DNA of 46,696 nucleotides from a virus. Taxonomy: Duplodnaviria > Caudoviricetes. The stretch covers positions 1-46,696 of the IMG/VR virus record IMGVR_UViG_3300005323_000059; one strand, given 5' to 3'. The notes beneath the pieces are model-generated. The model was not told the origin of the DNA and did no database searches. It worked only from the letters and a program-made list of their open reading frames with translations. A program made the position numbers and the translations under genes. Shown in pieces: positions 1 through 46,616 of this stretch. How positions within the stretch are numbered: the first letter of the stretch is position 1; each line of letters starts with the position of its first letter.

Positions 1-146
1 AGACGAACCAACAACACCTGTCGCGCCGGTAACAAGAACCGTCTTGTCAATCCAAAATTTATTCATGCGCCTCCCTGCGCTATGCTATTCTTCCTTCGGC
101 TTTTTGTCTAATTCGGAAGGTTTTACATCCGGTCTTTTCGCGTCTA
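1..146. repeat. Terminal overlap with 46551-46696 (circular contig)
   Basis: 146-nt direct repeat, mismatches only at positions 2, 15, 16, 42; joining the ends links the portal region to the dehydratase gene. Confidence 0.95.
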
Positions 147-252
147 TCTCCGAATCCTCGCGCCCGCAGACACAACGATAGCGTTTAATTACAACGCCAG
201 ACATTTTAGTAGTCTGCCACAGTTCCATTTCAAGTCCGCATTTACATTTCAT
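85..252 (-). CDS. Small Cys-rich protein, 55 aa (not in ORF track)
   Basis: MKCKCG...RYRCVCGRE...KEE*; ATG overlaps portal TGA (ATGA). Confidence 0.65.
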   Translation of the reverse strand: MKCKCGLEMELWQTTKMSGVVIKRYRCVCGREDSEIDAKRPDVKPSELDKKPKEE

Positions 253-1619
253 AATTGGCCTCTGTCAAAATTCTTCAATAACTGATCTCCCAGGTTGGTT
301 TCTTGCTCTTGCTCCCCTTCCATGCGCTCGCTTTCCTGTTCCCAGTCATAGCCCTTCATCACGCTGGCGGTCTGCTTTGACAACAATCCGGTCTCAACGT
401 CAGTCTTCAACTCCTGTGATTCTTCTGTGCCGTTTACGGGCAGGTTATCTTTCCAGATGATCTCGCCTGGGTCGGGGGTCATGTTGTTCATTTCCAGCAA
501 ACGCCGGTTGATCTCCAGCAGCGCATCGCCATATAATCTCTGTTTGGTTTTGATCTTATTGACCGCATCCTGATACAACACGCGCAGACCAAAGTTAGTC
601 AATGCGCCCAGTTTGTCAGCCACAGAATCTATGTCAACGGTGCGGGTAACGTCAAAGAACGCCTGTCTCATGGTCGTGAAGAACGTAGTGGATGAAGCCA
701 AGTCAGAGTTCAATTCAACCGTTTTCCAGAACGCCTCGGGATTATTGGCGGTCAGAATTTCGCCAACGTCCATGCTGACAACCTCTTTGTTGTCTGTCCC
801 CAACCCGTAAGTATAGGACTTCGGGTGCGCCCATAGCCTGACGATCTTGTTGATGTTGGATGCCAGGAAGTTTAGTTTATCCTGCAATCTGATAACGTCC
901 TCTGTCAAATCAGGTGTTCCATACACGTCATCAGCAGACGGCAAGTTCTGAAAGTGTAATATCTGCGCCCACGTATAATCCCATACCTCCGACTGCATCA
1001 ATACCCACTTCCCGCCCGTCGCAGATGATAGCTGGTAGTCGCTGATTAGCCAATTGTTATCCTGTGCTTCGTGTACTTGTTTGCGCAATAACTCTTTTCC
1101 ATCCAGCCCAACGGTGGCAAACTTGATCGTATAGCGTATGACCTGCTCGAAATCCTCCGGGTTGGTATCCATCTCAACCCACTTTGGGTCAACCAAGACA
1201 AAGCGCGGTAGTTCAACGTCATCTTTTATCAATCCGGCAGGAACGATCTTGACATACCCCGTCCCATCTTCACTGGCCAACATAGCCATGCGGTGCAGGA
1301 ATATCTGCTTTTTGTTGGCCTCCCACACAGAATTGATGTACTGATCTTCGGGCGTGTCGTCCGCTTCGCCCGGCAGGTCAAATTCCGGTTCTTCCCCGAA
1401 TAGCATAGAGATAGAGCGGTCAATCACCAACCCAGAGAAGTTGATATAGATGTTGTCATCCGTCTTACCTGGTCGCGCCTTGATCTGCTGCTTGTGTCTG
1501 CCCTCGCGGTAATCTCGGCGTTGCTGCATGCTCGCGATCCTTTGTGTCGCAGGTTCATCAAACAGCCCGGCAAACAACCAGTTCAGCGCGCCATTTCTTA
1601 GGTTATCAAATATGCCCAT
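249..1619 (-). CDS. Portal protein (SPP1 gp6-like)
   Basis: 456 aa, directly after TerL; YINFSGLVIDRSISMLFG and W..NLP.N segments typical of SPP1-type portals. Confidence 0.85.
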   Translation of the reverse strand: MGIFDNLRNGALNWLFAGLFDEPATQRIASMQQRRDYREGRHKQQIKARPGKTDDNIYINFSGLVIDRSISMLFGEEPEFDLPGEADDTPEDQYINSVWEANKKQIFLHRMAMLASEDGTGYVKIVPAGLIKDDVELPRFVLVDPKWVEMDTNPEDFEQVIRYTIKFATVGLDGKELLRKQVHEAQDNNWLISDYQLSSATGGKWVLMQSEVWDYTWAQILHFQNLPSADDVYGTPDLTEDVIRLQDKLNFLASNINKIVRLWAHPKSYTYGLGTDNKEVVSMDVGEILTANNPEAFWKTVELNSDLASSTTFFTTMRQAFFDVTRTVDIDSVADKLGALTNFGLRVLYQDAVNKIKTKQRLYGDALLEINRRLLEMNNMTPDPGEIIWKDNLPVNGTEESQELKTDVETGLLSKQTASVMKGYDWEQESERMEGEQEQETNLGDQLLKNFDRGQL

Positions 1620-22008: not shown

Positions 22009-22242
22009 TTATTGCTCCTTTTTCCCGTAAACATTTATCCAGTTTTGCCCGGACTTGATTTTTCTCATGGCAAGTTTTCCGTCCCTGACTTTCTTGTTCA
22101 GAAAACATCGCGCTCCGTTTGTTGAATACCCCGTCCGTTCAATGAACATCTCGGTAGTGAATTCGTCCGGGCGTATGGGTTCGCTTTTTGTTTCGTTTGC
22201 CAGTTCTTCCAATAAACTGTATTCCTCTTGTGTTACTTTCAT
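22009..22242 (-). CDS. Small winged-helix-like protein
   Basis: FTTEMFIERTGYSTNGARCFLNKKVRDGKL. Confidence 0.55.
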   Translation of the reverse strand: MKVTQEEYSLLEELANETKSEPIRPDEFTTEMFIERTGYSTNGARCFLNKKVRDGKLAMRKIKSGQNWINVYGKKEQ

Positions 22243-22889
22243 GCTTCCTCCATATTTATATTTAGAATGATATTTGTAAAAAATAGTATTTTAATTGCCG
22301 CCATTCTCCCGAAATATTTTTTTCTTCCCTCAATTATTTTTCTTTTGTGTTCCTCCGAGTGCGGGCGACCTTTTCCGAGAGCAATTTTGTTTCCAAGCAT
22401 TCTCAATCTCGCCTTTTCTCTTGTTTCTTTAGTTGGTACATAGCCGAGAGTGTGCTTATTTCCCAGCATTCGCAAAGAATTATTTCTCTTCCATTCCTCA
22501 GTTCTTTTATGTCCAAGAAATGGCTTTCTTCCTGCACAAGCCAACCTTAATTTCTCCCTCGTTTTTGGGCTTGGATGCAGTCCTTTTTGAGATGCGCGCG
22601 CACATGTTGCGATATTGTATTCTGGACTTAACGAATCAATCGCTCTTTGTTCAAAATAAATCAACATGGGCACATCTGTTAAAAACAATATATTAAATTC
22701 AAAGTTGCATTCACCGTGTTTATTCCACGCCCCTTGAAGATATGTTGAGTGGTGTTTATTGTTTTTAAGAAGCCCGATATGCTTTTTAATCCTATTGCGG
22801 ACATTACAAGAACTGCCAATATATCTGTGTTCATTAAGCTTGTTTTTAATCTCGTATATTCCGGGAGCTTTTCCAATATCAAAATTCAA
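22239..22889 (-). mobile_element. Free-standing GIY-YIG homing endonuclease with NUMOD3-like repeats
   Basis: GIYEIKN...YIGSS...R...H; HPSPKTREKL, HSEEHKRKI repeats; visibly AT-rich. Confidence 0.88.
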
Positions 22890-32675: not shown

Positions 32676-33335
32676 TCAAACCCTATAATCCAGATGGTCG
32701 TTTATCAACTTTTCTTTCATTTGCAAAAATCGCTCGTGCATTGGTACACCATGCCAACCAACCACAACTGGCTTTTCCACCATGTTCACATTTACAGTCG
32801 CATTCCACTTGTCGTCAATGACAGTAACTGCGCCGGGTAGTTCTTCCATCAACTTATTGAATGCGCCCTGGTCAGCCCAGCGTTTCGGCCCCGGCCAGCT
32901 ATCAAACCACTTATCAACAAAAGTCTTTGTTAAGTCGGTATTCCTGAAATAAAGCACGCCGACATTGATATGTTTATCGATCTTGTTCTGTTTCAGCCAG
33001 ACCGACTTAGCAGGGTCATGCACGCACCCGCCGATTCCGGTACAGGCTTCCCTTAGATCAGTTTCAAAGTCCACAATGGCTGCGTCAACGTCCAGCCAGA
33101 TAACGTATTCGTAATCTTGCAGGGCTTCTTTTACCAACCCGACTTTAGCCCATGCGCCGGATTCCCCGGTCATTTTCGGGTATTTGCCGCCCTGTAATGA
33201 CCAGTAGTCGATATTGTGGGCTGCGCAGTAAGCCGAATGTCGTGAGTAAGTAAGTCTCTGCATGTCAACAAACGTTGGACCAAAGACGTTATTATTCGAA
33301 TAGGTGTGCTGGATCAAAACCGCATTGTTTATCAT
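32676..33335 (-). CDS. GT-A glycosyltransferase (GT34/Mnn10-like)
   Basis: WAKV...WLDVDA (DxD), NVGVLYFRN, DQGAFN. Confidence 0.8.
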   Translation of the reverse strand: MINNAVLIQHTYSNNNVFGPTFVDMQRLTYSRHSAYCAAHNIDYWSLQGGKYPKMTGESGAWAKVGLVKEALQDYEYVIWLDVDAAIVDFETDLREACTGIGGCVHDPAKSVWLKQNKIDKHINVGVLYFRNTDLTKTFVDKWFDSWPGPKRWADQGAFNKLMEELPGAVTVIDDKWNATVNVNMVEKPVVVGWHGVPMHERFLQMKEKLINDHLDYRV

Positions 33336-34516
33336 TGGCGCACCTCCGCGACTTCCTGGTATCTTTTGGCTTCTTCTTGCATCCGCTTTTCAATGTCTAC
33401 AATAGTCGGCAGCAAATGTTTATCAAAAACGACTTGTGCGTCGTAGTTGTTGACCATGCCTTTGCGTGCCGCGTCCCTGGATGATGGTTTGGCGTATTCG
33501 AGATATAGTTTTCTCTCAATCGCCTCAACCTTTGCGATAAACTGGTTGCTCGCAATTCCCGTCCAGATCGGGACAGCATCCGACTTTTCGATAACGTGTC
33601 CAGAATGCACCAGTTCCGGCATGGCAGTCCATCCACCAACAATTACGGGGCATCCACATGCTTGCGCTTCGATGATCGGGATCCCGAAGCCCTCGCCCAT
33701 TGAAGCCAGCAAATGCACATCCATTGACGAATAAATAGCCGCCATGATTTCATCAGAGAACCCCAACATCATGTTGTATGGATTGGGAAGCAGAACGTCT
33801 TTTCCGTATCTCAATCCTAACAACTGGCATATTTCTGGAATGTTCACGCCGCCCAGTCCATCCCGTCCGGTTCCCTCTTGTGTATGCAGGTAATAAATCG
33901 CATCGGTGTGTTTCCGCTTGAAGTTTGCGAACGCCTTTAGCATGTCGGGGAAGTTCTTGCGTGATGGCTGCCCCTTGTTCATGGCTACGGTTCCAACAAT
34001 CCAGGCATCCTCTGGAAAGCCCATGATCTTGCGTGCTTCTTTTTTGTCTATTGGTTTGTAAATGTTCGTGTCAACGCCGTGCGGAACATAATAACAATCC
34101 AGCCCGGCCTTGTGGGATTCTTCGACCCCAAACTTGCTCATGGCAATCCGGTAATTTGCCCGCGCAATTGCTTCGCGTACTTTTCCCGGCATTGGTTCGT
34201 GATCGACCGGATACCACGCAATCCACTTGAACGGCTGGAAGCTCTCCGGCGTTATCACCCACGTATCCATCAGGGTGAAAATCGCATCCGCCCCGATGTT
34301 AGCTGCGTGGGCATTGGCAATATCCATTCCATACGGATGTTGGGCTTTTGGAAGGTGCAGTACGCCATTGTAATTAAATCCGCCACCCTCCAAGCCATAA
34401 TATCCAAGTACAGTGGTCTGGTGTCCGGCATCAATCAAGCGCTTTGCAAACATATTGGTTTGCACGCCGTATCCGGTTTTCGTCCAGGCCGCGTTGCTGA
34501 TCCAAAGTAATTTCAT
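33332..34516 (-). CDS. GT-B glycosyltransferase, GT4 family
   Basis: TGYG N-motif, VPHGVD, RKNFP, EGFGIPIIEAQACGCPVI. Confidence 0.9.
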   Translation of the reverse strand: MKLLWISNAAWTKTGYGVQTNMFAKRLIDAGHQTTVLGYYGLEGGGFNYNGVLHLPKAQHPYGMDIANAHAANIGADAIFTLMDTWVITPESFQPFKWIAWYPVDHEPMPGKVREAIARANYRIAMSKFGVEESHKAGLDCYYVPHGVDTNIYKPIDKKEARKIMGFPEDAWIVGTVAMNKGQPSRKNFPDMLKAFANFKRKHTDAIYYLHTQEGTGRDGLGGVNIPEICQLLGLRYGKDVLLPNPYNMMLGFSDEIMAAIYSSMDVHLLASMGEGFGIPIIEAQACGCPVIVGGWTAMPELVHSGHVIEKSDAVPIWTGIASNQFIAKVEAIERKLYLEYAKPSSRDAARKGMVNNYDAQVVFDKHLLPTIVDIEKRMQEEAKRYQEVAEVRQ

Positions 34517-34610: not shown

Positions 34611-35012
34611 TTATTTACCCATTACGTACTGCACGGAGCAGTTAAGTATGGGAATATCGGCGCTCGCGGCAGTCTGCTTCCACTGCGCGAAAACGCCGTA
34701 ACCGGCATCCACGAAAGCAGTCGAAACAGTTCCAACGCGCGAAGTACCCGCCGTCCAGTTTGCTGAACCTAACACGCTGGTGATTGTGCCATTCAGCACC
34801 CCGGCTGATGTTTTGGTAACCAGCTCAAAAACAGGGGCGGAAGCAGCGGTCAGTGCAATATTCGAACAAAAATCAACGCGGGTGATGGTAATGCCACCGC
34901 CCACCGCATCAGTCGGCGCATAGAAGCCAAAAATGGTTGTGGTTCCTACGGCCATAGTTCCCGGCTGACTCAACAGCGGGATGCAAACATTCATTACATT
35001 AGCGTTTCCCAT
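34611..35012 (-). CDS. Putative capsid decoration protein
   Basis: 133 aa, T/S/A/G-rich, immediately after major capsid gene. Confidence 0.5.
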   Translation of the reverse strand: MGNANVMNVCIPLLSQPGTMAVGTTTIFGFYAPTDAVGGGITITRVDFCSNIALTAASAPVFELVTKTSAGVLNGTITSVLGSANWTAGTSRVGTVSTAFVDAGYGVFAQWKQTAASADIPILNCSVQYVMGK

Positions 35013-35022
35013 TATTCACCTC

Positions 35023-35865
35023 TTAGCTGTATGCGTTCTTGAATATTCCATACACACCAAAGGTCGGGCGGTATAGTCCATAACCGTAAACCATCGAGGC
35101 ATTAAGCTCGTAGCCACGCCGTGAAGGATCGCGGTCAGGCTCAATTCTGAACGGTCTGCGAATATCAAGCCCAATTGCAGCGCGGGAGAACATGCCCGCG
35201 TAGGCATCGGTTGAAGATTCCTCGCAGTTCTCGGTTACGTAGATTTCAACGCCAGCCACGTTACCAACATAGAAGTTATCGGCCAGCGCGTTCTGTTTTG
35301 CGGGAGCGTTGGTAACGGTTGCCCCAACAGATGCAGCCTTGCCAAGCGAGAACCAGTGGGCGGGCTTGCAAACAAACACATAGGGCATCGGCGCGTATTT
35401 GGTGCGCAGTTTGCTCATCAACTCAAAGAAGTACGCCCAGGTTGCCAGCGATCCTGACGCCCCAGCCGAGCCCCCAGTAAAGCTGTTGAACAGTCCGCAC
35501 AAATTGACATCAACGTGATTGCCCATGCCGGCACCAAGTTCCTGCGCGGCATCCTCGCGAACGGCATTCCAGTCGGAAGCCACGCGCTGATCGGTCAGGA
35601 AGTATTGCGCGCCGTATTCTGCGGGAGTGATCGTGCCGAGAATTGACGGGGTGAATGCCTGCGAGGTCATATCGTCAGATTCACCTAGCGTATTGATGGT
35701 TACGGCAGAGTATTGGTAAAACTTGCGGTCTTCCGACCCTTCCGCAGAGAAGGGCGTTACAAGACCGGCCATGACATTATTATCGCGTGCCACAGCCAGA
35801 GAACGTTCCAGGATGGGATTTACGATAGTGCTAATGTCACTAAATGTATTAAGTTGAACAGTCAT
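35023..35865 (-). CDS. Major capsid protein (HK97 fold)
   Basis: 280 aa after scaffold; G.VAGVEIYVT and IEPDRD...YGYG pattern. Confidence 0.8.
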   Translation of the reverse strand: MTVQLNTFSDISTIVNPILERSLAVARDNNVMAGLVTPFSAEGSEDRKFYQYSAVTINTLGESDDMTSQAFTPSILGTITPAEYGAQYFLTDQRVASDWNAVREDAAQELGAGMGNHVDVNLCGLFNSFTGGSAGASGSLATWAYFFELMSKLRTKYAPMPYVFVCKPAHWFSLGKAASVGATVTNAPAKQNALADNFYVGNVAGVEIYVTENCEESSTDAYAGMFSRAAIGLDIRRPFRIEPDRDPSRRGYELNASMVYGYGLYRPTFGVYGIFKNAYS

Positions 35866-36698: not shown

Positions 36699-37685
36699 TC
36701 ATCCATTGATTAAATCCTTTAGCGGTGTTTCAGATCGCATATCTCCATAGACCGGGTCGTTATAAATCCTGCTCAATTTGTCGAATGTGAACAGGCCGTC
36801 TTTATAGGCTTTGTATCTCCCGATTCCCATCCGCTCTGTTTTCTGCGCTTCCGATAGGGCATTAAACCATTCTTCTGCGTTCTGTAATCCATAATCAATG
36901 CCCTCCAATTGCGGGATCATGGTACAGCGTCCATTGTGATGATCCGACATGGGTTCATCAAGCGGGTGAACAGTCCCATGCATCGCTATACACGACAGGC
37001 AGGTGCGCGGATCATCCAAAGAGGCAAACCAAATCCAGCTCTTTACGATGTCTGAATTGGCAAGATAATTCAGCCTGGTAGATTCTCTGTAAGCCCACAA
37101 TTGCGCGGTTCTGGTCGTGCGCATGGCATCGTTCAGCCCAGCTCCAAAAGCTTTGCGAATGTCAACCGCTATTGCTTTTGGATTCCTGCCAAGAGACACG
37201 CCCTCGATTATAGACTTGCCGATTTGCGCAGAAGCGTTGGGTGCCCATAGCTCAATACGTTTCGATAGTTCCCCGCCGGATTTCAGCAAATCCGAGAGAA
37301 CATCTATCCCGGTCGGCGCGGCAATTTTGGCCGCAATGCCCGAATACGAATAGAAATCCTTTAAGTGTATGATTGCCAACTCCGCCGCCATCAAACCGGC
37401 CGTGTTCAATTCAATCTTTACGTATTTGGAGAAGTCGTCTATTTCGGATTCGGCTACATCCAATAGCTCAATATACGCGGACAACTTTTTGATCTGCGCG
37501 GTTGTTATTTTCGGGTTGGCCTGAATGGTCAATATGACATTGTTGATGTATGGTTGCAACTTCCGATACAGCGCCCCGTAATTGTTTATCAAGCGCAATA
37601 ACAACTTATCGTTTATGCCCTTGATTTCCTTTTGCTGCTTCAGAAAAAGATTCAGTAAATCTGCCGGCGTGATTTTATTTGCCAC
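36699..37685 (-). CDS. Minor head protein (SPP1 gp7 / Mu gpF family)
   Basis: RTTRT...WIWFASLDDPRTCLSCIAMHG...HHNGRCTMIP. Confidence 0.88.
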   Translation of the reverse strand: MANKITPADLLNLFLKQQKEIKGINDKLLLRLINNYGALYRKLQPYINNVILTIQANPKITTAQIKKLSAYIELLDVAESEIDDFSKYVKIELNTAGLMAAELAIIHLKDFYSYSGIAAKIAAPTGIDVLSDLLKSGGELSKRIELWAPNASAQIGKSIIEGVSLGRNPKAIAVDIRKAFGAGLNDAMRTTRTAQLWAYRESTRLNYLANSDIVKSWIWFASLDDPRTCLSCIAMHGTVHPLDEPMSDHHNGRCTMIPQLEGIDYGLQNAEEWFNALSEAQKTERMGIGRYKAYKDGLFTFDKLSRIYNDPVYGDMRSETPLKDLING

Positions 37686-38350
37686 TAATCCACCTCGTCC
37701 ATTGGCGCAGTAACCATCTTGCCATCTACCAACCTAGATTTAACGCGGTGGCGGAGTTGCTGGTTTGGGTCGGCGGTAACATCTATAATAATTGGCGACA
37801 TTTTTGTTATGCTGCATATAGCATTAATTGCATCTCTCCATGTACAAAATTCATAGACATACTCTCCATCATCCTCGTGAACATAGTTTTTGTCGTCAGA
37901 CAAATATCCCATATCTAAACGATAAATTCCAGGGAAACTTCCGGCGTGTGGCAACGTCAATCCGCTGGTATCGTCTGCGCCAGTCAATCGCCCGAAATTC
38001 TTCATCTGCGAATCACGGATAGAAGCATAGCCGTTGTTGTTGATGATGAACATGATGATCGGCAAGTCCAGTCTGCGGATGGTTTCCAGTTCCTGAATGT
38101 TTAACTGAAATCCACCATCGCCCTCAATATGAATGACACGCTTTCCGGTAGCCAGTGCCGCGCCGATGGAGTACGGAAGTCCTGCCCCCATCTCTCCCAA
38201 TACAAAGTTAGTGCAAAATCGCTGTCCAGGCTTTACTTTCCACGTCTGTAAAATAATATTCGCGGCCATGCCGCTTGCAGACAGGTTGATTATATCAGTT
38301 GGTAGACTGGCTTCATTAAGCGCTTCAACAAAGTCATATAGATCGATCAT
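37685..38350 (-). CDS. TPP enzyme, C-terminal diphosphate-binding domain (YerE/ALS-like)
   Basis: GEMGAGLP, GDGG...NNNGY motif; own SD GGGAGG. Confidence 0.88.
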   Translation of the reverse strand: MIDLYDFVEALNEASLPTDIINLSASGMAANIILQTWKVKPGQRFCTNFVLGEMGAGLPYSIGAALATGKRVIHIEGDGGFQLNIQELETIRRLDLPIIMFIINNNGYASIRDSQMKNFGRLTGADDTSGLTLPHAGSFPGIYRLDMGYLSDDKNYVHEDDGEYVYEFCTWRDAINAICSITKMSPIIIDVTADPNQQLRHRVKSRLVDGKMVTAPMDEVD

Positions 38351-38769
38351 CCCATTTCCTCCCGCAATTTGCGCATGAAGTCGAATACATCCATATTGAC
38401 CTTGATGTAATCATCCGGCAATCTATCCAGCTCTGCCTTATCAATATCAACCACAATCTTTTTGGCATTGGGGCAAAAGTCATTGGGGTGGAAGCACGTC
38501 AGGCTATCTTCAACCCTTGCGCCCAACACAAGAATAAGATCCGATTCTGCCATCTTTTTATTAGCCTCCGGCTGTGCATAAAGTCCCGGCCTCCCGGCAT
38601 TCAGCGGATGTCCTTCCGGCAGCAGGTCGATTGCCCGCCATGACAGCATGACCGGGATGTTCATTTCCTCGACGAACCACTCAAATACCGGGCGCTTCAA
38701 TGTACATCCATGACCGGCATAAATAACCGGGCGGCGGGATTTATTGATTAGTTTTGCGATTTCTTTCAT
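38347..38769 (-). CDS. TPP enzyme, central domain (YerE/ALS-like)
   Basis: RPVIYAGHG, GRPG, SDLILVLGAR, VDIDKAEL; start MKEI overlapping upstream TGA. Confidence 0.85.
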   Translation of the reverse strand: MKEIAKLINKSRRPVIYAGHGCTLKRPVFEWFVEEMNIPVMLSWRAIDLLPEGHPLNAGRPGLYAQPEANKKMAESDLILVLGARVEDSLTCFHPNDFCPNAKKIVVDIDKAELDRLPDDYIKVNMDVFDFMRKLREEMG

Positions 38770-39278
38770 ATCTCTGCGCTCTGCACATCTAATGGGATAT
38801 CTATCCAAACGGGGCCTTGACGGGGCTGTTTGGCATACTCAATATAATACGAAAATGGAATGTAATAATTTGTTTTTGGCAGCACTTCGGCTAACTTTGT
38901 TATTGGCTTTACCATACTAATAATATCCAATTCCTGTACCCCATTGAATCGCTGTTCTGGCGTTTTCAGTTGCCATGTGTTGACTTGCCCGCTGATGAAT
39001 AATACCGGCATGGAATTACACCACGCAGACGCGCAGGCGGTTATGGCATTTGTTCCGCCCGGCCCGGATGTTACCAGGCAGACCCCTAATCCATTGAATT
39101 GTGCGTATGCTTCAGCGGCCAGCCCAGCCGCCTGTTCATGCAGGCAGCAGATGTATTGCAGCCGCTTGTTCTGGCCGAGAGAATCCACAAGATGCATAGC
39201 TCCCCCGCCGCTGACCATGAACACGTGTTTTACGCCTTGATCGGCGATGTAAGACCAAATGAAGTCAGATAATTTCAT
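38766..39278 (-). CDS. TPP enzyme, N-terminal pyrimidine-binding domain (YerE/ALS-like)
   Basis: VSGGGAMHLVDS, catalytic HEQAA, VTSGPGGTNA, GPVWIDIPLDVQ. Confidence 0.9.
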   Translation of the reverse strand: MKLSDFIWSYIADQGVKHVFMVSGGGAMHLVDSLGQNKRLQYICCLHEQAAGLAAEAYAQFNGLGVCLVTSGPGGTNAITACASAWCNSMPVLFISGQVNTWQLKTPEQRFNGVQELDIISMVKPITKLAEVLPKTNYYIPFSYYIEYAKQPRQGPVWIDIPLDVQSAEI

Positions 39279-39381
39279 CACATTCTTTCCCACAATACGG
39301 GCAGATAACAGCTTTCTCTACCCACTTTACCATAAATGACTTCCCGCAAGCATGACACAGAACCTCATACCATTCAGTCAT
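39265..39381 (-). CDS. 38-aa zinc-ribbon microprotein (not in ORF track)
   Basis: MTEWYEVLCHACGKSF...ICPYCGKECDEII*. Confidence 0.6.
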   Translation of the reverse strand: MTEWYEVLCHACGKSFMVKWVEKAVICPYCGKECDEII

Positions 39382-39384
39382 CTT

Positions 39385-39621
39385 TCACCACAAATACTCT
39401 CCGATTATAATTATCATAATACACGCCCCGGAAAACACGACAACAACCCTGCTTTTTTCACCAGCATTGGCAAATCCAAAATTATTAGTTCCGCCGTGAC
39501 TAAAATTTTTGCTCAACCCCATTTGAAGAACCCACTCATTGGCATCTCTTTCGTTTTGAAATGATTTTTCTATCGTTTTATCGCCAGAAGCAAGAGATAA
39601 CACGCATTCTGCCTCTATCAT
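39385..39621 (-). CDS. Hypothetical protein
   Basis: 78 aa, ATGA coupling. Confidence 0.5.
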   Translation of the reverse strand: MIEAECVLSLASGDKTIEKSFQNERDANEWVLQMGLSKNFSHGGTNNFGFANAGEKSRVVVVFSGACIMIIIIGEYLW

Positions 39622-40115
39622 TTCACCTCATAATAAATCGTATCGCGCCAGTCGGGGCATCTTAGCCTTTTGGGATTGATGCACTTCGGCACTTCAAGAT
39701 CGAGAAACGGAAAGACGTTGTTCAGCCCAGCCGGGCACAGATGGTTAAGTTTATCATTCATTGGAAACAATAATTTCTGCCCCAAAACGTGCCCATTCGG
39801 ACACTCTCCAACGTTTACCACTTCAGCATAGATTACCCACCAATGAGGCGGAACGTGGCCGAAAGAGTGATTGGGTTCCTCGCGCCTAATCAGCACATCT
39901 ACGCCTTTCTCTGCCGGGCAGCACACCCAAATATCCTGCATGTCAGCATGATAAAGTAGCCCGAGAAAATATGGGTAAAGCGAATGATACAGGAACGGAC
40001 AAATACCGCGCGGCAATATCTCATTGTCTGAATATTCTTTGCCGTCAGCATGGCAACCGTGCCAGGGACAGTCTGATTCGCAAACATGTTGTTTTATAAC
40101 AGGAAATTTGCCCAT
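39618..40115 (-). CDS. Cys-rich protein with two TIGR04076-like repeats
   Basis: CPW...PRGICP...CCP and CPNGH..GQK...LCP...CPD. Confidence 0.55.
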   Translation of the reverse strand: MGKFPVIKQHVCESDCPWHGCHADGKEYSDNEILPRGICPFLYHSLYPYFLGLLYHADMQDIWVCCPAEKGVDVLIRREEPNHSFGHVPPHWWVIYAEVVNVGECPNGHVLGQKLLFPMNDKLNHLCPAGLNNVFPFLDLEVPKCINPKRLRCPDWRDTIYYEVK

Positions 40116-41167
40116 TCTGTCCTATTCCTATACTGTTCCAAAATCTGATTGTTCTTGTATTGGTTACACACCATGCACTCTTCGCCATTTGGGGGCATGT
40201 TCAGTATCCACTTTGTTATCTCTTTGCGCCTGTCTGATTTCCATATCCCCTCAAACGTATGCTCGTGTAGATTGCCAAATGATAGTTCTGGCTTATCCCA
40301 GCCGCGCCAACAGGGGATAACGTCCCCATTCGGAGCTATGACGGTCTCAAAATGAATGCCCTGGCAAAAGCCCGGATAAAACGTTGAGCAAGTTACGCCA
40401 GTTTTGGTCTCGCTATTGGGGAATCGAATATGCACCTCAAAGTCATCATCTTTCAATGCCAAAACGTCCCGTTTCATATCCCATATCTGCTGTTCCGTGT
40501 AGTAGTCGGACGTAAACGCCCGCTTTCCAATGGGCGATAGGTCATAGTAAATGGCTTCCATGATGACCAAGTAATCCAACCCCAAATCTTTAAAATAACT
40601 CACAATGTCATAAGCGTAATCAAAACTATACGGTTCGAGATAAACGGTCGCCATGAGCATGGTTTTTGTACGATGTTTGACCGCGTATTTCAGGTTGTCT
40701 ATTAATACGCCGTGTTGTTTTTCCGAACAACCGTGCTGCCGTGCGTAGCGGATGGGATTGCTATCGATCACGCTAAATCTTACGTAATTCAGCTTGTCCA
40801 TGCACTTGTCCTGAAATTCTGGGGTAAACAACACCCCATTTGTGCTGATGGTCTGCGGCAGGCTTGTTGTATTGATCGCGTCCGCCAACTTCTTGTGCAT
40901 GAGCGGGTCGCCATCTCCCTGATACAAAATTGCCTTGACGCCCGCGTTCATTAATTCGTTCGGCAGGCGCATGAGCAAGCCATCATCCATGTGCAGCTTT
41001 TTAACTCGCGTCATAGCATAGCAATATTGGCATTTCTGATTGCAGCGTCCGGTCGGCGCTATCTCTGCCAGTATGGGCGGGAAGTATTCCCCGGCTTCCC
41101 ACTTTGCCAGTCTTTCAGGATGATATAGCGTTCGGGGGTCAAAATAACCGCGCAGGTATTTGTTCAT
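40094..41167 (-). CDS. Radical SAM enzyme with SPASM/Twitch domain
   Basis: CNQKCQYC, GDGDP, C-terminal C...GDVIPC...CMVC. Confidence 0.9.
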   Translation of the reverse strand: MNKYLRGYFDPRTLYHPERLAKWEAGEYFPPILAEIAPTGRCNQKCQYCYAMTRVKKLHMDDGLLMRLPNELMNAGVKAILYQGDGDPLMHKKLADAINTTSLPQTISTNGVLFTPEFQDKCMDKLNYVRFSVIDSNPIRYARQHGCSEKQHGVLIDNLKYAVKHRTKTMLMATVYLEPYSFDYAYDIVSYFKDLGLDYLVIMEAIYYDLSPIGKRAFTSDYYTEQQIWDMKRDVLALKDDDFEVHIRFPNSETKTGVTCSTFYPGFCQGIHFETVIAPNGDVIPCWRGWDKPELSFGNLHEHTFEGIWKSDRRKEITKWILNMPPNGEECMVCNQYKNNQILEQYRNRTEWANFLL

Positions 41168-41967
41168 GGCCTCTCCCATTCAATTGTCTTGGCAAGCGCA
41201 GTGTCAAGATCAGTGTAGTGTTCAAGCCCAAGCGCTTTTGCCTTGCTGGTGTTTGGCTTGTAAATTGGATGCGGGTCGTTATATGGGTCGCTATCAATCA
41301 CTTCTATTGACTGGTTTCCACCAACGCAGTCTGCAACTCTGTGCGCCAAATCAAGCATGGTTACTGCTTTTGCTCCGCCCACGTCATAAACACCAACTTC
41401 CGCAAACAAAATATTCAGCAACCATATCACCAAATCCGCCATGTAGATATAAGAGCGCATACTACGTCCGCCGGAATATACTTTGATCGGCTCATTATTT
41501 AAACAGGATTTAATGTATGCCCCAACCGCAAGCGGTCTCTGACACACGCCGCCGCCGATCACCGTAAAGACGCGCGCAATATTCACCGGCAAGCCAGAGT
41601 TAATAAAAAGTTCCTCATTTTCGCATTTCTCGACCTGAATGGGCGATGGTTTCATGTCATAAACTGCGCCGGATGAAGTAAACAATACGTGCTTGACTTG
41701 CGCCTCTCTAAGCACGTCAATCAATCCGCTCAATTCGCCCTTTGCTAAATGGATGCAGTAATCACCCTCAACCGGATGGGGGTCGCGCATATCCAGTTTA
41801 TCGTACTCACAGCCCATGTGATCCAGCGCGGCACACAGCCACGTTCCAAACCAGCCCTCACAGCCAGTTATGATTCCGCGCATAGACTGCAATCTTCTAA
41901 CATCAACGTGCCGCGCAATCAATCCGAGGTCATCTAATGGGATGGGTTTTTTCAAATCAAATTTCAC
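41164..41967 (-). CDS. NAD-dependent epimerase/dehydratase (extended SDR, YerF-like position)
   Basis: GCEGWFG Rossmann motif, TSSGAVY, RSYIY..D; GTG start after GGAGG. Confidence 0.8.
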   Translation of the reverse strand: MKFDLKKPIPLDDLGLIARHVDVRRLQSMRGIITGCEGWFGTWLCAALDHMGCEYDKLDMRDPHPVEGDYCIHLAKGELSGLIDVLREAQVKHVLFTSSGAVYDMKPSPIQVEKCENEELFINSGLPVNIARVFTVIGGGVCQRPLAVGAYIKSCLNNEPIKVYSGGRSMRSYIYMADLVIWLLNILFAEVGVYDVGGAKAVTMLDLAHRVADCVGGNQSIEVIDSDPYNDPHPIYKPNTSKAKALGLEHYTDLDTALAKTIEWERP

Positions 41968-42871
41968 ACTTCCTCCGCAAATAATCTGGATCAACCGCCA
42001 TCATGCAGGTCGGCACTCTCTCGCTGAATTCTTTATCACCCTGCCTAACAATGTCTGCCAACGGCTCATTGAACACATTTCCAATAGAATACTCTTGCAT
42101 GACAGGACACGGGTTCACATCCCCGAATTTGGTAATGTTTATCATGCGCCTCATTGCTATGCAACTTCCGTCAGGGGTCAGGTGTGAAAACGCGCCATAG
42201 CTTTTAGCCAGCAACTCCACGTAGTCGATTTCTTTTTGCGTAAGTAACACATCTACATTGTTTTTCCATGCCCCCACTGGCTTAGCATATAAAATGCAAA
42301 CCGGCACTTTCCACGCAGAGAAGTATTCCAAAAACCCAACCAGTTCTTGAGAGCGCGCCCGTTGTTTATCAACCACCGTCTGCACGATCACATTTATTCC
42401 AACATTTTTACAGTTTCGCACAGCCCCAAAGGCCAACGACCAGGAGCACGTCTTTCCCCGGAATTCGTCATGCTCGTTGTGGTCAAGACTATCAATAGAT
42501 ACTTGAACCTTATCAACGCCGATTGACTTTAAGTGTTTGGCTCTCTGCTCGTCCAAATACCAACCGTTCGTATCGGTTGTGATGTAAAACTTTTTGGGGT
42601 CGATTGCTTGTACAATTTCATCAAAATTTGGGTAGATCAGCGGCTCACCGCCCGAGATAACAAACTGCGCGAACCCCAATTCGTCCACCTGCCAGGATAT
42701 ACTTTGTATATCCTCAATGGTCATTGAGCGCCCTTGTTCACCCTGTAGTTCCCTGACACAACAATGCTTACAGCGCAGGTTGCAGATGTATGACGGTTCA
42801 ATGCGCACAATCCTCATGCCGTGTTGTACGACCTTATCGTACACGTATGGTTTGTCTTCTTGCAAGGTCAT
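41957..42871 (-). CDS. Radical SAM enzyme with Twitch/SPASM-like C-terminus
   Basis: CNLRCKHC, SGGEP, TNG, C...GDVNPCP. Confidence 0.9.
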   Translation of the reverse strand: MTLQEDKPYVYDKVVQHGMRIVRIEPSYICNLRCKHCCVRELQGEQGRSMTIEDIQSISWQVDELGFAQFVISGGEPLIYPNFDEIVQAIDPKKFYITTDTNGWYLDEQRAKHLKSIGVDKVQVSIDSLDHNEHDEFRGKTCSWSLAFGAVRNCKNVGINVIVQTVVDKQRARSQELVGFLEYFSAWKVPVCILYAKPVGAWKNNVDVLLTQKEIDYVELLAKSYGAFSHLTPDGSCIAMRRMINITKFGDVNPCPVMQEYSIGNVFNEPLADIVRQGDKEFSERVPTCMMAVDPDYLRRKCEI

Positions 42872-43716
42872 TTGATAATTTCCAACCCATCCTCTCTCAT
42901 AACCGCAATGCTCCCATCAAATTGAATTCTGGCCAGTATCTCGTCCGAATACCCAGCGCCCATGATAATAACTGCGTCCGCCTCCCTAAGCCTGTCCGGG
43001 TGATAAATAGGCAGACAGCCAACAGGGGAATACTTGCCTATCTTCATCGGCGAATCGTCCACAATAAACGCCACTTTGGGGTTCAGCGTTGCGATATAAG
43101 CAAATGCCTGATGGCTTGCTCCATAGATCGCCACGCGCTTGAAACATTGCGTGTAATTATCAATCGCGGCTTTCAGGCGCATCCGCTTTGTGTCGAATGG
43201 CAAAACATGAATCAAAGAGCGTTTGCGCACCAGCGCCGACAGAATGTAATCGTTCCAAACTGATTGAATCTGCACGACCTCAAATCCATTGTACTGCAAT
43301 GCAAATCTTAGCGTATCTTCTGTGAAGTACATCAGATGGTCTAACATGATCTCGGCATATAGGGCTTTTGACAGAACCATGTCAAAGTTCGGCACTTCAA
43401 TTATCCCTGTTCCATCAAGTCCGCGCAAATAACCATTCGGGTCAGGCACATGCTCCAATCTGTGCAAGCTGTAGAAATCCGCCTCCGGCAGAGAATCAAT
43501 GCGTCTTTGCATGGCTTCATTATAGGTTCGGATATCCTCTTGCCAATACCAAACAGGGTCGTTGTCCAGCTGAACCAGTCCGCACCCAACACATTGACAC
43601 AACTTCAGATTGACCTTGTGTTCTTCCGGCGTATTTGATAGATGCTGCGCCATAGCCGGCATATCCGGCATGGTCAATAAAAGATGCGTGGGCTGATTAC
43701 ATACGCGACAGTTCAT
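42868..43716 (-). CDS. NDP-sugar C-methyltransferase-like protein (shortened)
   Basis: CRVC...CVGCGLVQL Zn domain, LEHVPDP, IIEVPN, YGASHQ, VDDSPMKIGKY; start MNCRVC. Confidence 0.7.
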   Translation of the reverse strand: MNCRVCNQPTHLLLTMPDMPAMAQHLSNTPEEHKVNLKLCQCVGCGLVQLDNDPVWYWQEDIRTYNEAMQRRIDSLPEADFYSLHRLEHVPDPNGYLRGLDGTGIIEVPNFDMVLSKALYAEIMLDHLMYFTEDTLRFALQYNGFEVVQIQSVWNDYILSALVRKRSLIHVLPFDTKRMRLKAAIDNYTQCFKRVAIYGASHQAFAYIATLNPKVAFIVDDSPMKIGKYSPVGCLPIYHPDRLREADAVIIMGAGYSDEILARIQFDGSIAVMREDGLEIIK

Positions 43717-43894
43717 TTGTCTTTTGTTTTCCAAGTATATGGGATTTACCCAGCATATATGCAGCAACAATCATGGCATCAACATCTTCCTCAATTACCA
43801 ATACTCCATATATCCACCCACCAAGAATTTTGTCTTTGATTTCTTTGGATATTTGAAACATTATCGCCTTACCCATTCCAATATCGCGTTTCAT
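43697..43894 (-). CDS. Hypothetical protein
   Basis: 65 aa, SD GGAGGTG. Confidence 0.5.
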   Translation of the reverse strand: MKRDIGMGKAIMFQISKEIKDKILGGWIYGVLVIEEDVDAMIVAAYMLGKSHILGKQKTNELSRM

Positions 43895-43918
43895 TTATTC
43901 ACCTCCCGATGAATTGTT

Positions 43919-44116
43919 TCATTTTCCAAAAAGATAAAAACCACTACCTGGATTCGCGTAAAGAGAATATGCGTCTATTGAATTATCTTCGGGCGCAGAA
44001 ATAGCGCTTTCTTTATTCGAACCATAATTATTATCGGCCGTTAAGCGTATAACATACGCACAATATAAACAATAACAACCAACAATCTGTATCCCTACCA
44101 ACAAAATAAATAGCAT
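43919..44116 (-). CDS. Small membrane protein
   Basis: Start MLFILLVGIQIVG just after E1 stop; hydrophobic N-terminus. Confidence 0.45.
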   Translation of the reverse strand: MLFILLVGIQIVGCYCLYCAYVIRLTADNNYGSNKESAISAPEDNSIDAYSLYANPGSGFYLFGK

Positions 44117-44117
44117 C

Positions 44118-45305
44118 TTAATTATTTTTTGCCAGATCACGCAATACCTCCAAAACATAATCCGCCATCTCGTCCGTGATGGTCGGCGACAGGAACAGCC
44201 AAAATCCATTGTCCATGATCCAATTCGTGTTTTTCAAATCGCCAATGACGCGATGCTCAATATCCTTGTACGCTGGTTGTCTCAATATATTTCCGGCAAA
44301 CATCCGGCGGTTGCCGATCTTGTACTTTTCTTCCAGTGTCCGGCAGAATGACTGCGTGTCATGTTTCTCCCTGAACGTCAACGGGAAGCCGAACCATGCC
44401 GGATCACTGCCCGGTGTCGCTTCCGGCAGCCAGAACACATCTTCAAGGTCTTTCAGCCCGTCATAGTATTTCTTGAATAGCTGCTTGCGCCTCTCGATGA
44501 ACTCTGACAGCTTACTCATCTGCGCCACGCCCAGCGCGGCTTGCATTTCGGTCATGTTTAGATTGTATCCAATATGCGAGTAGGTGTACTTGTGATCGTA
44601 CTCCCCATCGAACCGATGTCCGCATGAGTTATCCGTATTTGGCGGACACCAGCAATCACGCCCCCAATCCCTGAACGAGCGCATGAGTTTATAGAGTAGT
44701 GGGTCATTCGTGCAAACTGCCCCACCCTCGCCGGTTGTGATGTGGTGAGCGGGATAGAATGAATAGGTGGAAATATCGCCGCAATGACAATCCTTATTGA
44801 TTGCGTCACAATTATCAAATAAAGAATAAGATTCTGTTCGCACCGGAAACATAGAATATATGAGGGGTATCTCATTCCCCAAAAACGCTGGGAAAAATAT
44901 CGCATTATTGCTCTTATGTTCAAATGTTTGTTTTTCTGGAACATAATATGGCAGCTCCACATCCACAAACACCGGCACTAATCCGCATTGGATAATCGGA
45001 TTGACTGTAGTGGGGAAGTTCAGCGCAGTTGTGATGACTTCATCCCCTTTTTTCAAGCGGCGTTCTCCCAGTTCCTCCGCCGTCAATGCAGATAAGGCGA
45101 TCAGGTTGGCCGATGATCCGCTATTGGTCAACAGGCAGTATTTCGCGCCCACAAACTCGCATAGCATCCGCTCAAACTTGCGCGAGAAGTCGCCGTAGGT
45201 GTAACATTCGGACTGGGCTACCTTGTGCAGATTGACCCATTCTTCAAGCCCTACAGACTGGTTGCGAATGGGGATGTGGGTTTCGCCAGGGATGAATTTG
45301 TTCAT
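44118..45305 (-). CDS. rfbH: CDP-4-keto-6-deoxyglucose 3-dehydrase E1 (RfbH/DdhC)
   Basis: NSGSSANL, SFYPAHHITTGEGG (His instead of the PLP Lys), [2Fe-2S] motif GRDCWC...C...DHKYTYSHIGYN, AGNILRQPAY. Confidence 0.9.
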   Translation of the reverse strand: MNKFIPGETHIPIRNQSVGLEEWVNLHKVAQSECYTYGDFSRKFERMLCEFVGAKYCLLTNSGSSANLIALSALTAEELGERRLKKGDEVITTALNFPTTVNPIIQCGLVPVFVDVELPYYVPEKQTFEHKSNNAIFFPAFLGNEIPLIYSMFPVRTESYSLFDNCDAINKDCHCGDISTYSFYPAHHITTGEGGAVCTNDPLLYKLMRSFRDWGRDCWCPPNTDNSCGHRFDGEYDHKYTYSHIGYNLNMTEMQAALGVAQMSKLSEFIERRKQLFKKYYDGLKDLEDVFWLPEATPGSDPAWFGFPLTFREKHDTQSFCRTLEEKYKIGNRRMFAGNILRQPAYKDIEHRVIGDLKNTNWIMDNGFWLFLSPTITDEMADYVLEVLRDLAKNN

Positions 45306-45617
45306 TCAATAATCCGCAAAATCTAAATCGTCAGCGTATTCGCGATCAACCACGTAAAGCCCTTTGTCGGTTTTTATATAATACTTTTCCTCGTGTCCAC
45401 TATATGGGGTAATAAAATTTGGACAAACCAATCTTGTGCAAGAAACATTGATTAAAGACCCATCCCTTGAATTCATAGGTAATACTGGATGTATCTGATG
45501 TGTTTTTTGGATCATTTTTGCGCCGCAATATCTACACCAACGCTCTTTTATTTTATTCGTTTTACTCTTTATATATAAAGTGTCCCCGTTTTTTAAACTA
45601 ATGATTTTTTTTGCCAT
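45306..45617 (-). CDS. Hypothetical AT-rich protein with CxxC
   Basis: 103 aa, CRYCG...CP..H; SD GGGAGG. Confidence 0.55.
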   Translation of the reverse strand: MAKKIISLKNGDTLYIKSKTNKIKERWCRYCGAKMIQKTHQIHPVLPMNSRDGSLINVSCTRLVCPNFITPYSGHEEKYYIKTDKGLYVVDREYADDLDFADY

Positions 45618-45647
45618 TTGTGCCTCCCGCGCTTATAGTACAACATT

Positions 45648-46616
45648 TTACTTATCTTTGCAACCCAAATAATCTTTGTACCAGACAACAGTTTCTTTCA
45701 GCCCGCGAGCAAATGAATACTGCGGTTTCCAATTGAGATTAGTTCGCGCTTTAGTGGAATCCAGCCATTGATATTTTATTTCGTTCTCTACTTTACCCAA
45801 CACATCGTACTTGGTCTTTACGCCCATCTCGTTGCAGATAGCGTCAATCACATCTCTTACAGTCAGTTCTTCGCTCGTGCTGAAGTTATACGCCCCCTGC
45901 GCGCAACATTGCGACATGAGCATATAAGCACTGACTGTATCTTTGACGTAGAAATAATCGCGTGTTTCATCGCCATTGCCGGATATTTCCGGGATCTCGC
46001 CACGTATGATCTTTCGAATAGTGCGCGGTATCAGGCGCGACCAGTTCACGTCCCCGCCCCCGTAAATGTTCCCGCAGCGGGTAATCCCAATAGGCACGCG
46101 ATAGGTATTGAGATAGGTCTGCGCCATCAGATCAGCGGTAGACTTCGAACAATCATACGGGTGTGTGCCATTGACCGGGTCGTCCTCAATGTACATGCGG
46201 CGCTCAAACAACTCCCCATACGCCTTATCGGATGATGCCAAAGCCAGATGCCTTAGTTTCTTGTGGTTTCTGCACGCCTCCAATACATTTAGCGTGGTCA
46301 AGATATTATTAGATAGCGTTGGGTATGGCGCATCATTGGCTATGCCAACGACTGTCTGCGCGGCCAAATGAAAGACTGAATCGATCTCATACTCTGCCAA
46401 CACGCGCTCAATCAGATTACGGTCATACAAATCCCCCTTGACGATATTGCAATAATCGAACGAATCACCATTAATTAACATCGAATCTGGCCGGTGGTCT
46501 CTGATGATGCAGGTAACATTCGCGCCCGCATCCAAAAGACGCTCGACCAGATACGAACCAACAAACCCTGTCGCGCCGGTAACAAGAACCGGCTTGTCAA
46601 TCCAAAATTTATTCAT
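45648..46616 (-). CDS. rfbG: NDP(CDP)-glucose 4,6-dehydratase, RfbG/DdhB-like
   Basis: FW.DKPVLVTGATGFVG, SSDKAYG, YDCSK (YxxxK), RCGNIYGGGD...RLIP. Confidence 0.8.
   Translation of the reverse strand: MNKFWIDKPVLVTGATGFVGSYLVERLLDAGANVTCIIRDHRPDSMLINGDSFDYCNIVKGDLYDRNLIERVLAEYEIDSVFHLAAQTVVGIANDAPYPTLSNNILTTLNVLEACRNHKKLRHLALASSDKAYGELFERRMYIEDDPVNGTHPYDCSKSTADLMAQTYLNTYRVPIGITRCGNIYGGGDVNWSRLIPRTIRKIIRGEIPEISGNGDETRDYFYVKDTVSAYMLMSQCCAQGAYNFSTSEELTVRDVIDAICNEMGVKTKYDVLGKVENEIKYQWLDSTKARTNLNWKPQYSFARGLKETVVWYKDYLGCKDK

Follow-up and report, generated by a model that had tools for sequence, protein, structure and literature searches.

Why does a small tailed phage carry a run of rare-sugar genes inside its head-morphogenesis operon, and which acceptor might receive the sugar? 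The question is posed by IMG/VR virus record IMGVR_UViG_3300005323_000059 (Duplodnaviria; Caudoviricetes), of which positions 1 to 46,696 were analyzed, a stretch of 46,696 nucleotides (nt) referred to here as the window. It is a whole phage genome with its genes on the minus strand, forming a circle of 46.55 kb in which the contig ends overlap over 146 nt with 4 mismatches. Around this circle the order is endolysin, terminase, portal, an 8.9-kb block, the minor head gene gpF, scaffold, major capsid protein, a 133-amino-acid (aa) gene, a GT4-type glycosyltransferase (GT), a GT34-like GT, and then adaptor and tail genes. The block (37685..46616), called the cassette below, is flanked by the following open reading frames (ORFs).

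249..1619, minus strand, portal, upstream flank on the circle (PF05133, phrog_64)
85..252, minus strand, 55-aa Cys-rich ORF after the portal, common to the related contigs L002 and L003
36699..37685, minus strand, gpF/SPP1 gp7-like minor head protein, downstream flank (TIGR01641, above cut-off)

From the portal the circle continues via the 55-aa ORF to the dehydratase gene (46616), and the last stop of the cassette overlaps the gpF start at 37685. The span of 8,932 nt is 19% of the circle, with 7,896 nt (17%) coding for enzymes, in agreement with the original prediction, made from the sequence alone, of about 9 kb of mostly coupled genes that lie between portal and gpF and fill about a fifth of the genome. 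Ten enzyme-like genes and five small passenger ORFs, most of them coupled by overlaps, make up the cassette, and its GC content (0.44-0.49) is similar to that of the remaining genome. Family matches comprise a 4,6-dehydratase, DegT/RfbH, Methyltransf_13 plus Methyltransf_14, two radical S-adenosylmethionine (SAM)/SPASM proteins, an epimerase-type short-chain dehydrogenase/reductase (SDR), TPP_N, TPP_M and TPP_C. On balance we favor, with no great confidence, the reading that the cassette is a late-operon donor module providing a C4-acyl-branched 3,6-dideoxysugar for virion glycosylation.

The dehydratase and E1 genes predict a 3,6-dideoxysugar route

Two genes would catalyze the entry into a nucleoside diphosphate (NDP)-sugar pathway.

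45648..46616, minus strand, NDP-glucose 4,6-dehydratase, cytidine diphosphate (CDP) type by motif (SDK...YxxxK)
44118..45305, minus strand, E1/DdhC/RfbH 3-dehydrase (PRK15407, 455.2 bits against a cut-off of 423; PDB 3bcx, E 1.5e-105)

The motif of the dehydratase, SSDK...YDCSK, fits the [ST]DK...YxxxK signature given for CDP-glucose 4,6-dehydratases, which also occurs in PseB and Pen (PMC8987622). Homologues 43-50% identical stand between RfbF and E1 in cellular clusters of the order RfbF-dehydratase-E1-SDR-methyltransferase-TPP-NeuB, which hold the same gene set, and because these homologues accompany RfbF the CDP type is favored; an RfbF-like gene is also present in a few phage cassettes. 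The RfbG/DdhB-like assignment originally made therefore stands on motif and cellular context, but the protein scores below both NCBIfam cut-offs (187 versus 278 for TIGR02622 and 200 versus 365 for the deoxythymidine diphosphate (dTDP) model). Assignment of the second gene as an E1 3-dehydrase with His in place of Lys and a [2Fe-2S] motif was confirmed by its score above the RfbH cut-off and by alignment of YPAHH and DCWC..C..DHKY with 3bcx; 3bb8 has Lys at that His, and an H220K variant has been described (PMC8987622). Among full-length viral E1 ORFs the His was kept in 72 of 72 and the cluster motif in 70 of 72.

A putative thiamine carboligase in three pieces

Downstream, a thiamine diphosphate (ThDP) enzyme of the YerE type is divided over three ORFs.

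38766..39278, minus strand, ThDP piece 1, PYR domain, 170 aa, with the HEQ glutamate (PF02776; best PDB match 5ahk, then 8xod/8x3x and 8rph)
38347..38769, minus strand, ThDP piece 2, stand-alone middle domain, 140 aa (PF00205)
37685..38350, minus strand, ThDP piece 3, PP domain, 221 aa, with GDG...NN (PF02775; best PDB matches 8rph and 5ahk)

The best match 5ahk is presumably PpYerE, and 8rph carries a CDG motif. In the accessible text of PMC12247030 the CDG motif belongs to JanthE. The carboligase of the original prediction was thus recovered in its YerE-like PDB matches, PYR glutamate and GDG...NN motif, but as three ORFs rather than one gene, the pieces meeting at domain boundaries and joined by ATGA overlaps. 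JGI names the middle piece acetolactate synthase.

A frameshifted pseudogene or a sequencing error was ruled out, since the 16 relatives inspected have the same stops and starts at the piece junctions, several with whole genes between the pieces, and dN/dS between the window and L002 is about 0.1 (0.10, 0.15 and 0.11 for pieces 1, 2 and 3). A search for the middle piece, restricted to 77-245 aa, returned 83 other clusters, 78 of them 130-165 aa long, all Met-initiated and 66 ending in the same motif.

With N, M and C denoting the three domains, 71 viral rows (duplicates included) comprised 33 N/MC, 21 NM/C, 8 N/M/C and 9 intact forms. The N-domain tree was built from 64 rows after removal of six duplicate loci, identical rows and matches shorter than 120 aa, and its root is not fixed; on it N/MC arose through 5 changes (3 forced) and NM/C through 3 (2 forced). 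All three-piece sequences fall in a single clade (99/94) whose sister group is an NM/C pair (99/95), a position consistent with stepwise fission. From these sequences, phages have split the enzyme at either domain boundary independently. Cellular clusters were sampled in 401 genomes of one phylum, the Chloroflexi, and all 69 cellular matches there lie in frames of 445-696 aa. Among 80 metagenome loci the enzyme was intact in 49 (1 with a phage marker), NM/C in 9 (6 with), three-piece in 8 (2 with) and unassigned in 14; six of the eight three-piece loci are shorter than 2.4 kb, and in L229 and L248 a split enzyme occurs with no phage marker.

Genes for GIY-YIG homing endonucleases occur between or beside ThDP pieces in L004 (7579-8565) and L048 (335-1006) and upstream of the TPP gene in L174, and NeuB or small ORFs lie between or beside the pieces in L074, L002, L105 and L107. 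The fissions may arise, or be exploited, through insertions at domain linkers.

Folding of the three pieces together gave a complex score of 0.85 (best control 0.00), with contacts agreeing to at least 95% between runs and partner pLDDT of at least 89; the mark for this score was reached by 116 of 157 solved pairs and by 2 of 215 mismatched pairs. The model speaks for retained interfaces rather than binding, the pass likely stemming from likeness to solved intact enzymes.

A YerE-like neighbor adjoins 56 of the 80 viral E1 loci described below, a split transketolase 5 and a dehydrogenase-E1 pair 1; many of the remaining loci are truncated or fall in a group whose route is unbranched. The same three ThDP classes are given for keto-sugar branching in the available text of PMC12247030, and the accessible parts of PMC9306805 and PMC12247030 describe YerE-like enzymes that branch CDP-4-keto-3,6-dideoxyglucose with donors of C2 to C8, from pyruvate to long hydroxylated 2-oxo acids. 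Because the window holds neither an aldolase nor NeuB, a simple donor such as pyruvate is our default guess.

Authenticity, distribution and age of the cassette

An IMG/VR contig (L001) is identical to the window over both junctions, and in sequencing run X1 the stretch lies in a single 39.7-kb contig without differences; the window may itself derive from either. In runs X2 and X3 the stretch is covered in short pieces, and among the best 18 of 67 pieces no junction is bridged. The stretch occurs in groundwater metagenome runs of three studies, one of which may have yielded the window, and no RNA run was listed among them. A chimeric join, or decaying host DNA with a frameshifted thiamine pseudogene, might be suspected from this coverage; the idea is extremely improbable given the conserved piece junctions described above and the same portal-to-gpF arrangement in many diverged phages, which is independent evidence that the junctions are real. 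Chimera, recent host copy and pseudogene were accordingly all rejected on the comparative data. The cluster sought in IMG/VR between portal and gpF was thereby found, relatives with an empty site also speak against chimeric host DNA, and a recent copy of a host O-antigen locus does not fit cellular homologues of the dehydratase, E1, SDR and TPP parts that are 29-50% identical (best fetched) or the purifying selection described below.

A scan of IMG/VR for E1 yielded 84 relatives, 80 of which were kept; 16 lie in an SPP1-type head module, 22 in an unrelated HK97-type head module and 42 elsewhere. Two capsid-protein scans were run, the second taking the best 80 of 228 matches, and the capsid type occurred in 109 contigs: 30 with the cassette, 42 without one between portal and capsid gene, and 37 that could not be assigned. 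The 30 of 72 is not a frequency, some contigs having been found via E1. The deposited phage Mae-JY09 has an empty site. On the capsid tree (72 rows) cassette presence changes at least five to six times. E1, the ThDP enzyme and the SDR occur together in all 22 cassettes that are fully spanned from portal to capsid gene, in two unrelated head types, these cassettes having been found mostly via E1 and including near-copies; other members are a methyltransferase-like gene (19), radical SAM (9), dehydratase (5), short-chain reductase (4), RfbF (2) and NeuB (2). When the window is compared with L002 or L105, most synonymous sites prove saturated although the proteins are still 44-86% identical (excepting the poorly aligned SDR against L105), and dN/dS, where measurable, is 0.06-0.25. 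The multiple gains or losses, the saturated synonymous sites with low dN/dS and the distant cellular homologues indicate, by comparison of sequences, that the cassette is old, mobile and under purifying selection.

In 50,697 cultured or deposited phage records, an E1 orthologue and a YerE-like gene were never combined among the matches listed: the E1 matches (best 40 of 79) are cyanophage proteins of about 32% identity and a 2.6-kb unannotated Salmonella record, and the TPP matches (best 30 of 32) read as host acetolactate synthase. The claim that no characterized small phage is known to have this pathway agrees with that result, but the cluster is common in uncultured phages, and nucleotide-sugar genes are known in small tailed phages: the Tetrasphaera phage TJE1 has nucleotidyl transferase, epimerase, methyltransferase and glycosyltransferase genes. 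A literature search found no paper on the cassette or on a three-gene ThDP enzyme; it covered mostly non-subscription papers, and supplementary tables of auxiliary metabolic genes could list such genes. An E1 search in five empty-site records, including the GT34-bearing L165 and L167, found none, four of these records being fragments.

Three further gene sets were observed. A second phage group, with contigs up to about 67 kb (L009, L011, L015, L016, L018, L019, L021, L023-L029, L035, L039-L041, L070, L071 and L076-L079), carries GT10, GT2 and Anp1-like transferases together with E1 and either a YerE-like enzyme (intact or NM/C) or a split transketolase, some members also having guanosine diphosphate (GDP)-mannose dehydratase and fucose synthase; a gene of 1,800-2,000 aa adjoins on the opposite strand. 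A third group (L033, L034, L044, L045, L053, L072 and L073) has RfbF, dehydratase, 3,5-epimerase, E1, an RmlD-like reductase, several GTs and a sulfotransferase, and without a thiamine enzyme it resembles an unbranched, ascarylose-like route. The 46.8-kb viral contig L005 (2883-12896) has RfbF above cut-off, dehydratase, an intact ThDP enzyme, an HpcH aldolase, a short-chain reductase, a dehydroquinate-synthase-like gene, E1 and GT2, a caryophyllose-type set that may be cellular DNA.

Glycosyltransferases and candidate acceptors behind the capsid gene

Four genes on the far side of gpF bear on where the sugar might go.

35023..35865, minus strand, major capsid protein, candidate acceptor (PF25209, phrog_267)
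34611..35012, minus strand, 133-aa conserved gene behind the capsid gene, 20% Ser plus Thr, candidate acceptor (no family match)
33332..34516, minus strand, GT4-type (GT-B) glycosyltransferase, family-wide behind the capsid gene
32676..33335, minus strand, GT34-like (GT-A, DxD) glycosyltransferase, traveling with the cassette

By its position the 133-aa gene is a probable decoration protein, and both GTs, without membrane segments, appear soluble. GT4 lies behind the capsid gene in 60 of the 61 contigs with 1.8 kb visible, the single miss being an ORF-calling error, and homologues stand directly behind the capsid genes of Mae-JY09 (PP395641, 42%) and phiPsal1 (MG835450, 32%). The close GT34 subfamily was present in 15 of 15 cassette contigs versus 2 of 18 empty-site contigs, a tally that left out the 37 unassigned and 39 too-short contigs. 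Empty-site phages have GT2s and tailoring enzymes in the slot behind GT4, and the HK97-type head family has the same cassette after the portal with a GT-A-like gene behind its capsid genes, a lead with Pfam support in fewer than half of the Atlas cluster members. In L082-L184 the GT4-to-adaptor slot is hypervariable, holding GT2, O-methyltransferases, formyltransferase, acetyltransferase, UDP-galactopyranose mutase, sulfotransferase, epimerases, radical SAM, beta-helix and glycoside hydrolase domains.

The position and co-occurrence of the GTs, together with the mycobacteriophage and Megavirinae precedents discussed below, make the particle the likeliest acceptor of the sugar, with DNA and the host envelope as alternatives. 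The earlier proposal that the sugar feeds the two GTs behind the capsid genes is therefore upheld as probable.

In the pathway we propose, the host would supply NDP-glucose, most likely CDP-glucose, and a ferredoxin- or flavodoxin-type reductant; the phage dehydratase would form the 4-keto-6-deoxy sugar, from which E1 would take off the C3 hydroxyl. The three ThDP pieces would assemble non-covalently into one YerE-like carboligase, which would draw on a 2-oxo acid to attach an acyl branch at C4; tailoring or binding of the product may fall to the SDR, the SAM-less methyltransferase homologue and the radical SAM enzymes. In the cytoplasm, a head (or tail) protein would have its glycan begun by GT4 and capped with the branched sugar by the GT34-like enzyme. 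Since other transferases and tailoring enzymes occupy the position after GT4 in cassette-less relatives, the cassette may be one option of a hypervariable particle-coating system. A wider view, which we hold tentatively and give somewhat less than an even chance, is that small tailed phages of uncultured hosts have a widespread and swappable "particle antigen" system in which a fixed capsid-linked GT is served by exchangeable donor cassettes, including one for a C4-branched dideoxysugar whose known occurrence has so far been limited to bacterial envelopes and antibiotics, with a repeatedly split thiamine enzyme and a SAM-free C-methyltransferase descendant with a new job.

Evidence against the favored reading, and alternative sugars and acceptors

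Several observations weigh against virion glycosylation with a branched dideoxysugar. The reading is built on genes, motifs, order, conservation, selection and co-occurrence, from which the chemical steps, the donor, the acceptor and the benefit are all deduced. Further points come from the accessory genes of the cassette.

42868..43716, minus strand, sugar C-methyltransferase homologue, 282 aa, without SAM motif I (Methyltransf_13 plus Methyltransf_14)
41957..42871, minus strand, radical SAM/SPASM protein 1 (PF04055, PF13186)
41164..41994, minus strand, shortened extended SDR, start uncertain, Ile replacing the Tyr of YxxxK
40094..41167, minus strand, radical SAM/SPASM protein 2 (best PDB sequence match BtrN, weak, C-terminal domain)
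39618..40115, minus strand, TIGR04076-type Cys-rich protein, alongside radical SAM protein 2 in L105, L174, L175, L228 and L248

About 70 residues, including SAM-binding motif I, are deleted from the methyltransferase homologue, and among 119 listed relatives the motif is present in 0 of 41 of the short form and 68 of 75 of the full-length form. The Zn-binding N-domain, the His/acid-His residues and the C-terminal Rossmann domain are kept, and the model (pLDDT 92) has KijD1, MtmC and TcaB9 as best Foldseek matches (E 6.5e-14 to 2.3e-11). The C-methyltransferase-like protein of the original prediction is thus borne out in fold but lacks its SAM-binding motif; by sequence it cannot be called a methyltransferase, and a sugar-binding, enolizing or scaffold role is speculation. 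The predicted SDR likewise has its epimerase-type family match, but its motif reads IQVEK; the Tyr is also lost in L003, L174 and L175, and YxxxK was matched in 27 of 37 homologues, 6 not being parsed. Two of the ten enzymes may therefore not be catalytic. The two radical SAM enzymes were correctly foreseen, both having radical SAM/SPASM family matches. The TIGR04076-type protein is built of two repeats (model pLDDT 92.8) and is a possible electron carrier or metal partner of radical SAM protein 2; a fold search of 48,161 chains returned nothing at Z of at least 5.

The degenerate SDR and methyltransferase, the variable partners (NeuB, short-chain reductase and radical SAM proteins) and the third phage group with E1, an epimerase and an RmlD-like reductase in place of a thiamine enzyme would also suit a virion decorated with a different sugar, either an unbranched or rearranged 3,6-dideoxysugar or one on which the thiamine and radical SAM enzymes make a tailoring group and not a C4 branch. 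This we consider quite unlikely, as the best matches are YerE-like and other ThDP classes that branch keto-sugars replace the YerE-like enzyme beside E1. A C4-branched 3,6-dideoxy NDP-sugar pathway is thus supported by the enzyme set, but yersiniose, the example first suggested, is not established as its product because the methyltransferase homologue has lost its SAM motif and the SDR its Tyr; in addition YerE-like enzymes accept C2 to C8 donors, ddhA and ddhD were not found, and the presence of yerF is doubtful.

E1 requires two electrons from a partner. The 2Fe-2S ferredoxin domain PF00111 of DdhD/E3 had no match in the genome (control positive in 12 of 14), and family searches of the window genome did not find DdhA, which contradicts the idea of a pathway made by the phage alone. 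With no ferredoxin domain encoded, analogy to SpnQ, which draws on cellular ferredoxin/flavodoxin (PMC8987622), points to host carriers for E1. Moreover, 17 of the 22 spanned cassettes also go without a 4,6-dehydratase, and RfbF above cut-off occurs in 48 of the 401 genomes of the candidate host phylum, from which either CDP or dTDP is possible as the nucleotide.

With respect to the acceptor, 42 of the 80 viral E1 loci lie outside any recognized head module, and in the accessible text of PMC11256854 the position of mycobacteriophage glycosylation genes is not tied to the capsid gene, so that GT position is only suggestive. The 7.7-kb metagenome contig L229 has an N/M split beside GtrA and GT2, a cell-surface context. 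Its cellular-looking surroundings also include an Fe-S protein, an NBR1-Ig protein and a mutator transposase, the middle piece is 68% identical, and the split form may have passed between phages and cells. Host-surface remodeling, in which the sugar would enter host envelope glycosylation (S-layer or lipid-linked glycans) and block superinfection or alter a receptor, agrees with this contig, with a gene set that mirrors cellular surface-glycan clusters, and with the interpretation of such genes in large cyanophages in the available text of PMC12801897. It is nevertheless unlikely here: a six-frame search with a working control found no tyrosine integrase, no GtrA/flippase or membrane GT was found among the scanned ORFs, the genes are coupled into the late head operon, and in two head families the position of the transferases behind the capsid gene is fixed.

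The link between GT34 and the cassette reduces to 4 independent pairs, of which 3-4 agree and 0 oppose (sign test p 0.125-0.25). That it is not significant after phylogenetic correction, and that 42 of 72 contigs of known status lack the cassette, which is hence dispensable, would fit a metabolic or counter-defense role unrelated to GT4 and GT34, such as draining or diverting the NDP-sugar pool or making a diffusible inhibitor. We regard this as hardly probable, no pair having opposed the link and a ten-gene pathway being costly as a sink.

Transfer of the sugar by the GTs to a modified DNA base before packaging has a parallel in DNA-glycosylating GT clusters of phages, some of which include sugar epimerases and lie close to terminases (bioRxiv 10.1101/2023.12.21.572611, as far as its available text goes), and a 2OG-Fe(II) oxygenase lies near one E1 locus and a C5 methylase near another. 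These clusters pair a GT with a C5 methyltransferase (C5-MT)/5mYOX or a ThyS-type enzyme and share with the window GTs that have sugar-modifying neighbors; in the window genome, however, no C5-MT and no such base-hydroxylating enzyme was found (the Tet_JBP search being without a positive control), thymidylate synthase was absent in a six-frame search with a working control, and the sole methylase is of the N6/N4 type. DNA polymerase, flippase and oxygenase were likewise not found among the scanned ORFs, and DNA hypermodification is very unlikely.

Comparison with known systems

Bacterial acyl-branched sugar pathways include those of yersiniose A (DdhABCD, YerE and YerF), erwiniose (ErwE/F), caryophyllose and gastriose (accessible parts of PMC9306805, PMC5399914 and PMC12247030). 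The cassette shares with them a CDP-type 4,6-dehydratase, an E1 with His and [2Fe-2S], a YerE-like ThDP enzyme and an adjoining SDR, whereas it lies in a phage head operon, lacks DdhA/DdhD and has a three-chain ThDP enzyme and an SDR without Tyr. The SAM-less methyltransferase homologue, the two radical SAM enzymes and the TIGR04076 protein are additions, and there is no flippase or polymerase. By gene content the cassette is not a member of the yersiniose/erwiniose pathways but is predicted to work like them.

Mycobacteriophages Che8, Corndog and Myrna use GTs of their own to glycosylate capsid and tail tube (Freeman 2023, cited in the available text of PMC12363180 and PMC12619734). The window likewise is a tailed phage with its own soluble GTs, for which capsid and tail tube are proposed acceptors; for the mycobacteriophages those texts report transferases, not donor pathways, whereas the window has a rare-sugar pathway and GTs fixed behind the capsid gene. 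Megavirinae make rare sugars for their fibrils (accessible text of PMC10117803), sharing with the window virus-encoded, clade-specific clusters of nucleotide-sugar pathways and GTs for rare bacterial-type sugars at the particle surface, yet they are giant eukaryotic viruses with amino sugars rather than bacterial viruses of 40-60 kb with a branched dideoxysugar. In the Microcystis phage Mae-JY09 and the Pontimonas phage phiPsal1, which share the GT4 homologue behind the capsid genes (Mae-JY09 also the head module order), the portal adjoins the head-morphogenesis gene, and the regions compared have neither E1 nor a thiamine enzyme.

If the favored reading is true, autonomous viral rare-sugar glycosylation would extend from giant viruses to phages of ordinary size, and sequences that a viromic survey would tally as "acetolactate synthase" or lipopolysaccharide auxiliary genes would gain a concrete non-metabolic meaning. 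Groundwater is free of antibodies, and the question would be raised of what selects for a sugar coat there. Enzymologists would gain a natural three-chain ThDP enzyme of the decarboxylase superfamily whose middle domain stands free, new carboligases that accept ketones, and C-methyltransferase homologues that form a SAM-less family under selection.

Host and remaining features of the genome

A scan of genome contigs found a phage-like contig in a Chloroflexi metagenome-assembled genome (MAG; 52%, the closest) and two in a Saccharibacteria MAG (39%), and clusters similar to the cassette occur in 15 of the 401 sampled Chloroflexi genomes; Mae-JY09 is filed under Microcystis. A promoter scan of the window gave matches at chance level. 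The passenger ORFs include the following.

45306..45617, minus strand, passenger ORF, 103 aa, AT-rich (GC 0.34)
39265..39621, minus strand, two small passenger ORFs, one of 78 aa, hydrophobic, and one of 38 aa with two CxxC

The 103-aa ORF is skipped in one contig of run X2 (depth 3.2). Elsewhere in the window, 12-nt and 24-nt direct repeats within a DnaD-like replication gene (13160-13266) are likely origin iterons, a 156-aa ORF without a known family contains 33-nt tandem repeats (19948-20135), and a GIY-YIG homing endonuclease (22239-22889) and a tail fibre with a weak CBM6 match (24098-25606) are encoded.

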